DNA of 64,000 bases from a virus. Each line of letters begins with the position of its first letter. The first letter of the stretch is position 1. Under the pieces are notes generated by a model. It was not told the DNA's origin. It did no database searches and saw only the letters and a program-made list of their open reading frames with translations. The position numbers were made by a program, and so were the translations under genes. Below are positions 3,012-4,106 of the stretch, in pieces. Where the stretch lies: the IMG/VR virus record IMGVR_UViG_3300032722_000006, positions 32,001 through 96,000 of that record. One strand, 5' to 3'.

Positions 3012-3039
3012 TGTACATCCTAGAAACGATGGTTATAGT
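3012..3039 (+). promoter_or_regulatory. Sigma70-like promoter (TGTACA ... TATAGT); predicted start site falls at about the uORF ATG at 3047
   Basis: -10 TATAGT at 3034-3039; the same TG(A/T/C)AC/AA...TAnnnT architecture recurs at 4108-4136 and upstream of several - strand genes. Confidence 0.55.
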
Positions 3040-3046
3040 TACGAAC

Positions 3047-3140
3047 ATGACTGGCTTCCTCTGAATGCAAGGCGCTTAAAGCGCGTGGACCTCCCATGGT
3101 AGTGATTCTCCGGGTTTCGTTGAGTTTCACTTTCACATAA
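3047..3140 (+). promoter_or_regulatory. Putative leader uORF (MTGFL-UGA; +1 frame CKALKARGPP...FT-UAA)
   Basis: ATG 3047, TGA 3062-3064; the +1 frame is open to TAA 3138-3140, immediately before the AGAGG RBS of 3152. Confidence 0.4.
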
Positions 3141-3151
3141 AGAGGTTCATC

Positions 3152-3667
3152 ATGTCACATCACATCGGTCTTCAGGTCCTCCGCGCGAAGGTTCGCGGTT
3201 TTCAAGCATCAGGTCAGTCACTCACACACCTCATCTCCAAGACGGAGAAAGAGCGCAAGAGCAATTTGTGGAACAAGAAGCGTGATTTGGGAAAGTTCGC
3301 CCGTCTTCACCTCATTGCATACGGATTGCTTCGCGGTATTCCCTACGAAAGGATCGAGAAGTGCGCAAAGGACAACAGGCCAAATCCTCAGCAGGTGTTC
3401 GAAATCATCAAGGAACACAGCAAGAACGTGTGGAAACCGTTCATGGTCGACGGAAAGCAGCACGGATGTCGACTCGACGAGTGGACTCTCGAAAGGGTAA
3501 GGGAACTCCTCACGGTGAAGGATGCCGTTGCGGAGCCTGTTGCTGCAAGCGAGCCGTGCTCGACAGCAACCGTCGCCTCGCAGCAAATCCAGTCCCAAGA
3601 ACCACCTCCTCGGTCTATCTTGGACCGTCTCGTGGCCCTCACGCGGCCGCAAGAAAAAAGGGCCTGA
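3152..3667 (+). CDS. Hypothetical protein upstream of PTH2
   Basis: AGAGG RBS; basic N-terminus with ARLHLIAYGLLRGIPYERIE segment. Confidence 0.75.
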   Translation: MSHHIGLQVLRAKVRGFQASGQSLTHLISKTEKERKSNLWNKKRDLGKFARLHLIAYGLLRGIPYERIEKCAKDNRPNPQQVFEIIKEHSKNVWKPFMVDGKQHGCRLDEWTLERVRELLTVKDAVAEPVAASEPCSTATVASQQIQSQEPPPRSILDRLVALTRPQEKRA

Positions 3668-3675
3668 GGCGGACC

Positions 3676-4023
3676 ATGGCTACTGTAAGAATGGGGGATA
3701 AGCTTTATCTCGTGACACGAAGGGACATCGCGCCTGGGTACCAGGCTGTCCAATCGTGTCATGCAATGAGGCAATTCACGGCCGAGCATCCGGATCGTGA
3801 TGGCGAGTGGTTCACAAACTCCAACTACCTCGCGTTGCTCTCTGCAGCTGACGAGGTCGAGCTCATGAGGCTCATCTCAAAGGCGAAGGACGCAGGCCTG
3901 CGATGGTCGGCGTTCCGAGAACCAGACGTAGGTGGTCAGATCACTGCGATCGCTATCGAGCCGCACCCGAAGACAGCAAAGCTGTGTGAGGACCTACCCC
4001 TTGCACTGAAGGAGTTCGCATAG
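3676..4023 (+). CDS. Peptidyl-tRNA hydrolase type 2 (PTH2-like)
   Basis: KLYLVTRRDIAPGYQAVQSCHA and FREPDVGGQITAIAIEP; start ATG 3676 inside track ORF 3361..4023. Confidence 0.85.
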   Translation: MATVRMGDKLYLVTRRDIAPGYQAVQSCHAMRQFTAEHPDRDGEWFTNSNYLALLSAADEVELMRLISKAKDAGLRWSAFREPDVGGQITAIAIEPHPKTAKLCEDLPLALKEFA

Positions 4024-4030
4024 GCTCCAC

Positions 4031-4106
4031 GCTCCCGTAGCCTAGAGGTCAGGCGGCGGAACTTCAAATCCGACACACGTGGGTCCAAATCCCACCGGGG
4101 GCGCCA
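4031..4106 (+). tRNA. tRNA with UCA anticodon (opal-suppressor type), 8-nt anticodon loop ACUUCAAA
   Basis: Acceptor GCTCCCG/CGGGGGC, D stem GCCT/AGGC, anticodon stem (G)CGGA/TCCG(A), T stem GTGGG/CCCAC, G73, encoded CCA. Confidence 0.85.

Follow-up and report, generated by a model that had tools for sequence, protein, structure and literature searches.

We describe here a small unit of phage DNA in which a tRNA with an enlarged anticodon loop appears to serve as the key to the translation of a neighboring gene. The unit lies at positions 3012–4106 of a 64,000-nucleotide (nt) stretch (the window), which comprises bases 32001–96000 of a 145-kb linear phage contig (IMG/VR record IMGVR_UViG_3300032722_000006, about 39% complete), and consists of a short leader, a gene for a basic protein (gene 1), a gene for a Pth2-like protein, and the tRNA gene. 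Comparison with related sequences points to a natural four-base-codon switch in about 100 related phage loci. We think it probable that wild phages use a private four-base codon (UGAA, UAGA or AUAA) read by a dedicated tRNA with an 8-nt anticodon loop, that the resulting programmed +1 step is the key to an arrest-peptide attenuator over the widespread gene 1, and that the codon–anticodon pair has been repeatedly swapped in evolution. It is highly probable, as judged from the sequence comparisons, that gene 1 is under a translational lock opened by the phage's private 8-nt-loop tRNA. To our knowledge, four-base decoding is known only from laboratory mutants and engineered tRNAs, and we found no earlier description of such a switch in the literature, of which most subscription papers were outside our reach. 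The parts of the unit that matter for this argument are as follows:

3012–3039, plus strand: predicted promoter of putative activity (−35 TGTACA at 3012–3017, 16 nt, −10 TATAGT at 3034–3039), with the start predicted at about 3046–3047
3047–3061, plus strand: upstream open reading frame (uORF) in frame 0, MTGFL, starting at ATG 3047, conserved in position and not in sequence
3062–3065, plus strand: candidate recoding site UGA-A (UGA at 3062–3064, A at 3065), complementary to the tRNA loop bases UUCA
3066–3140, plus strand: continuation in the +1 frame, CKALKA-RGPP, without a start codon of its own, ending at the stop TAA 3138–3140
3072–3084, plus strand: small hairpin 3′ of the recoding site, predicted by folding and from relatives, with the back-up stop TAA 3077–3079 in its loop
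3084–3095, plus strand: arrest-type motif Arg-Gly-Pro-Pro (RGPP), whose codons, judging from folding and relatives, double as an anti-Shine–Dalgarno (anti-SD) strand
3085–3150, plus strand: long stem-loop, predicted by folding and compensatory changes, in which 3085–3093 pair with 3142–3150 and hide the gene 1 ribosome-binding site (RBS), AGAGG 3141–3145
3152–3667, plus strand: gene 1, encoding a basic, all-helical protein of 171 amino acids, the conserved output of the switch (model with a predicted local distance difference test score of 81; helical hairpin at residues 5–60)
4031–4106, plus strand: tRNA with an 8-nt anticodon loop AC-UUCA-AA (Rfam 44.5 bits, best match RF00005)

Related loci were gathered by the Pth2-like protein, gene 1 alignments, the tRNA pattern, and from annotated phages; a second gathering via a distant gene 1 alignment brought 80 more, whose leaders were parsed independently of the tRNAs. 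As the loci are mutually related, the counts given below overstate their independence, and some anticodon loops were parsed by hand. In the locus of the closest gene 1 relative (62% identity) the layout is shared; the tRNA loop there is AC-UUCA-AG, and RGPP, again in +1, is spaced differently.

A preliminary description of the unit, made from the window sequence alone, had placed a promoter start at about ATG 3047, followed by a uORF, MTGFL, that ends at UGA-A and continues in the +1 frame into RGPP. Both elements are present, the latter at 3047–3140. Although the promoter hexamers alone are at chance level (9/12 match; 2 found vs. 2.4 expected), in 33 of 46 related leaders a −35-like hexamer, mostly TGTACA, lies 33–41 nt (usually 35) upstream of where the uORF starts, and this conserved spacing argues that the uORF is leaderless. 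The leader matched no Rfam family. The RGPP codons are reachable solely via a +1 step: in 36 of 37 +1 leaders the motif frame itself lacks an ATG or GTG start, and triplet readthrough of UGA would give, as had been read from the window, MQGA followed by the stop TAA 3077–3079. Such a back-up frame-0 stop stands ahead of the end of the motif in 33 of the 37 +1 leaders. A hairpin like that at 3072–3084 was found in about 27 of 29 close relatives; many distant leaders are too short for one. The +1 frame stops, in the window, exactly before the RBS (TAA 3138–3140, then AGAGG 3141–3145 and ATG 3152), as had been noticed, but this detail is not conserved, the +1 frames of relatives ending just after the two prolines or continuing into gene 1. 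The suspicion that RGPP might be a chance occurrence can be set aside: all six frames of the 145-kb contig contain only 12 R[AG]PP words, and UGAA leaders differ in how far UGAA stands from the motif, with at least 10 spacings from 7 to 40 nt, every one of them 1 mod 3. The uORF stop, the +1 RGPP and the 8-nt loop, whose conservation had been proposed as a check, are indeed conserved in related loci. More TGTACA-type promoter-like sites occur on the minus strand at 58764 of the window and at 106147 and 4063 of G000 C1, one of them just upstream of a tRNA array; they possibly share their promoter class with the site at 3012.

The 8-nt anticodon loop of the tRNA, described at the outset as AC-UUCA-AA and complementary to UGAA, reads ACUUCAAA at 4061–4068, is closed by a normal stem, and occurs identically in contigs from two JGI samples and one Logan/SRA run. 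AC-UUCA-AR loops are found in 15 distinct related tRNAs. The tRNA has a 7-base-pair acceptor stem, a 5-nt variable loop, G73, an encoded CCA, C at T-loop position 55, and a G27-A43 mismatch. Its UUC-A word reads like a Glu anticodon. Charging would be by a host synthetase, and the identity of the inserted residue may not matter, because acceptor stems and discriminator bases vary widely among related tRNAs (CCA is encoded in 21 of 59). A selenocysteine tRNA was considered and rejected: the long variable arm, the extended acceptor stem, the 7-nt UCA loop and the in-frame insertion are all missing. Another possibility is that the tRNA suppresses opal codons as an ordinary triplet reader (UCA), the additional A of its loop being bulged, and that the +1 RGPP is incidental. 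In support of that, the Rfam alignment inserts this A on the 5′ side of C32-U33, and 8-nt loops are paired with frame 0 in five loci. We nevertheless find this explanation hardly credible, since triplet readthrough would meet the conserved back-up stop, all spacings are 1 mod 3, and the AC-type loop is the sole type seen in several +1 loci (the window, L035, L036, L037, L072, L176, L178, L264, L314 and L324).

The main support for a recoding circuit, proposed as a candidate in the preliminary description, is that the leader codon covaries with the anticodon, the loop size and the frame in the 98 phage loci with both a leader and a tRNA, a tally compiled by hand. The triplet of the leader codon (UGA, UAG, UAA or AUA) is complementary to the tRNA anticodon in 98/98 loci, and the combinations are distributed as follows:

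UGAA in +1 with a UUCA 8-nt loop: 66 loci
UAGA in +1 with UCUA: 6 loci
AUAA in +1 with UUAU: 1 locus (L017, ambiguous)
UAG in frame 0 with a 7-nt CUA loop: 19 loci
UGA-G in frame 0 with a 7-nt UCA loop: 1 locus (L290)
8-nt loop with an unpaired fourth base, frame 0: L074, L235 and L265
UAAA in frame 0 with UUUA: 2 loci (L089 and L285), the exceptions to the rule given below

In the first set of 46 loci, the triplets matched in 46/46, and the frame equaled loop size minus 7 in 44/46; this prediction from loop size only was made before the second set was gathered. The fuller rule, that +1 is used only if an 8-nt loop is combined with a pairing fourth base, holds in 96 of 98 loci (47/48 in the first set and 49/50 in the later one), its fourth-base clause having been fitted after both sets were viewed. 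All 73 +1 loci are four-base complementary. The type of code switches repeatedly on the gene 1 tree, with 13 changes over 10 labels; its starred branches force at least three changes for UGAA and at least four for UAG, in a tree built from a short alignment and including three long branches. Two leaders for which ARAGORN gave no tRNA, those of NCTB and L267, proved to have 8-nt UUCA tRNAs.

Instead of decoding, the tRNA-like RNA might act as an antisense or a decoy by pairing with the leader codon off the ribosome. The odd features of the molecule (C33, C55 and the G27-A43 mismatch) would fit such a role, as would the high variability of acceptor stems and discriminator bases and the encoding of CCA in only a minority of the genes. 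However, antisense action needs more than four base pairs, and a decoy would leave unexplained why the frame tracks loop size and why UAG and UGAA occur inside gene 1 in some relatives (see below); we consider it extremely unlikely.

The direction of control follows from these simpler relatives. Five loci begin gene 1 with M-T-UAG and have a 7-nt CUA tRNA just upstream (L247:962, L254:3992, L255:3992, L258:3959 and L281:3983), and in L318 the gene 1 frame is entered via UGAA/+1 inside the gene, with an 8-nt UUCA tRNA behind it (a near-cognate start downstream is possible). As a stop codon or UGAA here lies inside gene 1 itself, a working tRNA turns gene 1 on. These in-gene versions have no attenuator. 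Many distant loci consist of the tRNA, leader and gene 1 only, a gene content from which these three appear to be the core of the module.

The preliminary description had left open whether the leader senses termination efficiency or the tRNA. The autoregulatory +1 frameshift of prfB, encoding release factor 2 (RF2), takes place at CUU-UGA. Like prfB, the phage leader combines a +1 shift at an early UGA with competition from RF2; unlike prfB, it has no slippery P-site codon and no upstream SD, its shift is assigned to a special tRNA, and its output is a separate gene. If a shortage of release factor were the signal, slow termination at UGA would lead to a +1 slip and the tRNA would be a bystander. 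It is true that a stop codon occupies the shift site in nearly all loci, that RF2 must compete at UGA, and that neither a release factor gene nor a glutamyl-tRNA synthetase gene was found in the 39%-complete contig. However, the P-site codon in the window, CUC, cannot re-pair, there is no SD-like sequence in 3047–3061, and of the 12 different P-site codons that precede UGAA in relatives none (0/12) can re-pair in +1 with matches at both positions 1 and 2; prfB-type slippage was rejected for the window on these grounds. Moreover, codon, anticodon, loop size and frame covary, and the same UGA codon with a 7-nt UCA tRNA uses frame 0 (L290). Sensing of release factor shortage is therefore very unlikely, although the RF2 level may tune the output of the switch. 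Of the two proposed inputs, the tRNA itself is the more likely; termination is disfavored by the back-up stop, the lack of a prfB-type P-site codon, and the dependence of codon type on the tRNA.

Beyond the recoding site, the leader has the features expected of an attenuator. The wobble base of the Gly codon and its pairing partner change together among relatives (A:U 24, U:A 4, G:U 2, A:A 1), and in a folding model with assumed ribosome footprints the SD of 44 leaders has a predicted probability of being unpaired of 0.18 in naked RNA, 0.19 while a ribosome terminates, and 0.47 once a ribosome occupies the motif, the increase exceeding 0.1 in 41 of the 44. By folding and compensatory changes only, these data indicate a hairpin that hides the RBS and would be opened by a ribosome on the motif. 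The Arg of the motif is encoded by all six Arg codons among relatives, which argues that the peptide, not RNA alone, is under selection. RGPP was shown to give robust arrest, resistant to elongation factor P, in several N-terminal contexts (PMC12992588). No N-terminal signal or membrane segment of the type that monitors Sec or YidC was found in the leader, where only 12 residues precede RGPP in the window and as few as 4 in relatives.

It is, however, conceivable that the same tRNA-keyed +1 step works without true arrest, a passing or briefly pausing ribosome opening the hairpin and the motif being kept mainly as the anti-SD strand. The anti-SD coincides exactly with the Gly-Pro-Pro codons, the leaders are very short, distant ones relax RGPP to xxPP (RDPP, RSPP, TGPP, YKPP or HKPP), and the in-gene versions do without the motif altogether. 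On the other hand, the Arg lies mostly outside the helix and is yet retained through all its codons, R[AG]PP predominates in the close clade, and RGPP is an efficient arrest core (PMC12992588). We regard passage without true arrest as rather unlikely, though deserving serious weight, and it is compatible with the role of the tRNA as the key.

Several observations weigh against a four-base-codon switch acting through an arrest peptide. L089 and L285 (UAAA) stay in frame 0 despite a complementary 8-nt loop. In every +1 case the fourth pair is A with U, which is conservation and not covariation, and the one AUAA locus, L017, is ambiguous because a UGAA two codons on also enters the +1 frame. Some leaders have no tRNA in the fetched DNA; of 5 records searched further, 2 yielded no match, and both are fragments (17% and 43% complete). 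The window tRNA has C at loop position 2 in place of the usual U33, which is found in 44 of 61 related tRNAs, and several CU-UUCA-AU loops can also be folded as 7-nt tRNA-Glu-like loops. The xxPP of distant leaders appears as early as residue 5, far shorter than in characterized arrest peptides. Finally, UGAA is not avoided as a terminator. By rough calls of open reading frames (ORFs), 88 of the 147 long ORFs of the contig terminate in TGA, 24 of these in TGAA, without depletion of UGAA; UGA is thus the main terminator of a standard genetic code, and a UGA-reassigned code (4 or 25) is ruled out. Given how often ORFs of this genome end in UGAA, the tRNA has to be weak or conditional, or else to depend on its context, in which the small hairpin just downstream of UGA-A might favor decoding. 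As a separate observation, the UAA-A leader of L071, like those of L089 and L285, is in frame 0 despite an 8-nt UUUA loop able to pair four bases.

With a four-base-codon switch as the preferred reading, the following course of events can be proposed. The leaderless uORF would be translated as far as UGA, where by default RF2 would terminate, the stem-loop formed by the RGPP codons keeping the RBS of gene 1 closed. A mature, charged 8-nt-loop tRNA would compete with RF2 and take UGA-A as one four-base step. SufB2, which also has an 8-nt loop, decodes in frame 0 while in the A site, most of its shifting taking place at translocation (PMC8464047), and in the leader, too, UGA would probably be read first, followed by a slip onto GAA; both this order and the simultaneous pairing of four bases fit the sequence data. 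Once in the +1 frame, the ribosome would reach RGPP, pause, and melt the anti-SD helix, and the freed RBS would allow the translation of gene 1 and of the Pth2-like gene behind it. Triplet readthrough by a host tRNA would meet the back-up stop four codons on, so that the lock would report this tRNA, not general miscoding. What the lock is for can be proposed only tentatively. Possibly, the tRNA acts as a sentinel that reports how the tRNA supply is faring (its processing and charging, and attack on it by host nucleases or toxins), and gene 1 encodes a short-lived RNA-binding product that appears only as long as the sentinel functions. Nearly as probable are a feedback loop, in which gene 1 or the Pth2-like protein would act negatively on the tRNA, and, slightly less so, a timer or a lock on a harmful product.

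Gene 1 homologues make up 799 cluster representatives. The family has no match in Pfam, PHROGs or NCBIfam, and fold searches returned only generic helical hairpins (best Z 9.1, root-mean-square deviation 1.9 over 63 residues) and uncharacterized phage proteins. All Atlas scores were below 0.9; a RegA-type repressor, at 0.84, is a lead only. No longer fused forms of gene 1 were found, which is weak evidence, and no relatives in GTDB genomes with close-clade patterns, a search of low sensitivity. C-terminal Ala is present in 65 of 204 homologues and may, judging from the sequences, be a protease signal. At 3652–3661 (plus strand), GAA-AAA/AAG before the gene 1 stop is kept in most close relatives, with the ATG of the Pth2-like gene in the −1 frame; it is a candidate for either a peptide end signal (E-K-x-A) or a slip site.

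The switch resembles several known systems in part. RAPP/RGPP attenuators (ApdA, ApdP, ApcA, CruR, Streptomyces uORFs; SecM being the paradigm) also have Arg-Gly-Pro-Pro in a uORF and a ribosome on the motif placed to free the hidden RBS of the next gene (PMC12992588, PMC10951233, PMC10987492). However, they are translated to the motif by default, whereas in the phage leader the motif is out of frame behind a stop and a dedicated tRNA is needed; they also often contain a secretion or membrane signal, whereas the phage leader has neither and is much shorter. SufA6, SufB2 and engineered quadruplet tRNAs likewise have an 8-nt loop complementary to a four-base word and produce a net +1 shift, but these are laboratory mutants or designs (PMC8464047), while the phage tRNAs are wild-type genes kept with a matching target in dozens of lineages. 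Selenocysteine and pyrrolysine insertion uses a dedicated tRNA for a stop codon. The phage system shares with it the stop-codon tRNA and, in the close clade, a hairpin 3′ of UGA, and differs from it in that there is no long variable arm, the frame shifts by one base, the hairpin is absent from distant loci, and tRNA bodies and codons vary. In Streptomyces, the bldA tRNA gates UUA-containing genes. Suppressor tRNAs control late genes in stop-recoded phages (bioRxiv 10.1101/2021.08.26.457843). In both cases, as in the phage module, the availability of one tRNA decides the translation of a gene. However, bldA reads a sense triplet and recoded phages reassign a stop in many genes, whereas in the phage module UGA is still the main stop, and a single visible target adjoins the tRNA gene and combines a four-base word with an attenuator.

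If this interpretation is true, phages in nature control a gene by a quadruplet step, genetic-code expansion could draw on dozens of tRNA bodies that are already naturally tuned, and the presence of 'suppressor' or mis-annotated tRNA-Glu/Pyl genes in standard-code phages would have an explanation. With a core shorter than 1.2 kb, the module is accessible in the isolated phages DLP3, DLP5 and Summit (UAG form) and NCTB (UGAA form). In the Stenotrophomonas phages DLP5, Summit and DLP3 (L231, L232 and L233, respectively), at about 3866–4371, an M-K-UAG leader with YKPP is accompanied by a 7-nt CUA tRNA; NCTB (L234/L236) has a UGAA/+1 RGPP leader and an unannotated AU-UUCA-AC tRNA 2.6 kb upstream.

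Between gene 1 and the tRNA lie two accessory features:

3676–4023, plus strand: gene for a divergent Pth2-fold protein, accessory (PF01981, 34.2 bits, cut-off 23)
3361–3675, plus strand: the −1 frame within gene 1, which stays open and is that of the Pth2-like gene, recognized by stop counts in relatives

Pth2 hydrolases depend on catalytic Lys, Asp and Thr residues. The protein called PTH2 in the preliminary description matches the Pth2 profile, as do the jumbo-phage enzymes of this family (PF01981; PMC7824862), but its catalytic Lys is replaced by Tyr (by Tyr, Gln or Ala among the Pth2-like proteins compared), its Asp-Ala-Gly/Thr segment is altered and shortened relative to 2zv3, 1q7s and 1wn2, and the NCBIfam Pth2 equivalog cut-offs are far from reached (24 vs. 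126 and 23 vs. 82). The Pth2-like gene is missing from many loci of the module. Thus, of the earlier proposal that the leader controls a translation-rescue operon, the control of a downstream gene is supported, but the core target is gene 1, and the label 'translation-rescue operon' is unproven. A second Pth2-family gene (46 bits), nearer to canonical Pth2 than the copy of the unit, lies within a tRNA array at 48534–48899 of the window (minus strand). In close relatives there are also add-ons encoding a tRNA-binding OB domain, an HD domain like that of SpoT, or a dephospho-CoA-kinase-like protein; downstream of the Pth2-like gene of L001–L018 there are often two private tRNAs with different bodies, along with tRNA-binding OB-fold, SpoT-like HD, DUF3307 or dephospho-CoA-kinase-like genes.

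The −1 frame over the 3′ half of gene 1 contains 6 stops against 54 expected from synonymous shuffles (19 loci), compared with 895 against 943 in control genes, and in 31 of 34 loci there is no −1-frame stop between codon 69 of gene 1 and the Pth2-like domain. ATG, GTG or TTG stands at the boundary of the open frame in nearly all loci (in the window GTG 3361, with AGGA 7 nt upstream). This pattern suggests a longer, basic-tailed form of the Pth2-like protein, begun at an internal start codon, or else a frameshift fusion; inspection revealed no conserved slippery heptamer for a gene 1–Pth2 frameshift. In cluster C mycobacteriophages, huge phages and Lak phages (L102:3980–4678, L103, L109, L104, L105 and L108), the Pth2-like family is paired with a CUA or UUA tRNA. 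No comparable leader was found near these pairs in the fetched DNA, and the family and suppressor-type tRNAs thus appear to be linked there in a second, separate way. In the mycobacteriophage IkeLoa, the tRNA array is closely preceded by a short ORF (L102:3199–3270), M-F-E-I-R-P-P, which is possibly another Pro-Pro leader.

The recoding unit is an insert, with a macro-domain gene on one side and a PD-(D/E)XK nuclease gene on the other, and its single odd tRNA sits far from the main tRNA arrays of the contig, which has about 50 tRNA genes. No TTGAC/TANAAT promoter at 17-nt spacing was found downstream of the tRNA at 4031–4106. Other unusual tRNA-like genes occur on the minus strand. At 44570–44661 of the window there is a second stop-type tRNA-like gene of 92 nt, with a UUA anticodon (ARAGORN), a long extra arm and a non-standard fold, which we take to resemble allo-tRNAs, and at 55289–55375 a long-arm tRNA with an abnormal A-rich anticodon loop that ARAGORN could not name. 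Additionally, outside the window, at 109141–110444 of G000 C1, clustered tRNA-like genes with 5–6-nt or otherwise odd anticodon loops lie among Lys and Asn tRNAs.

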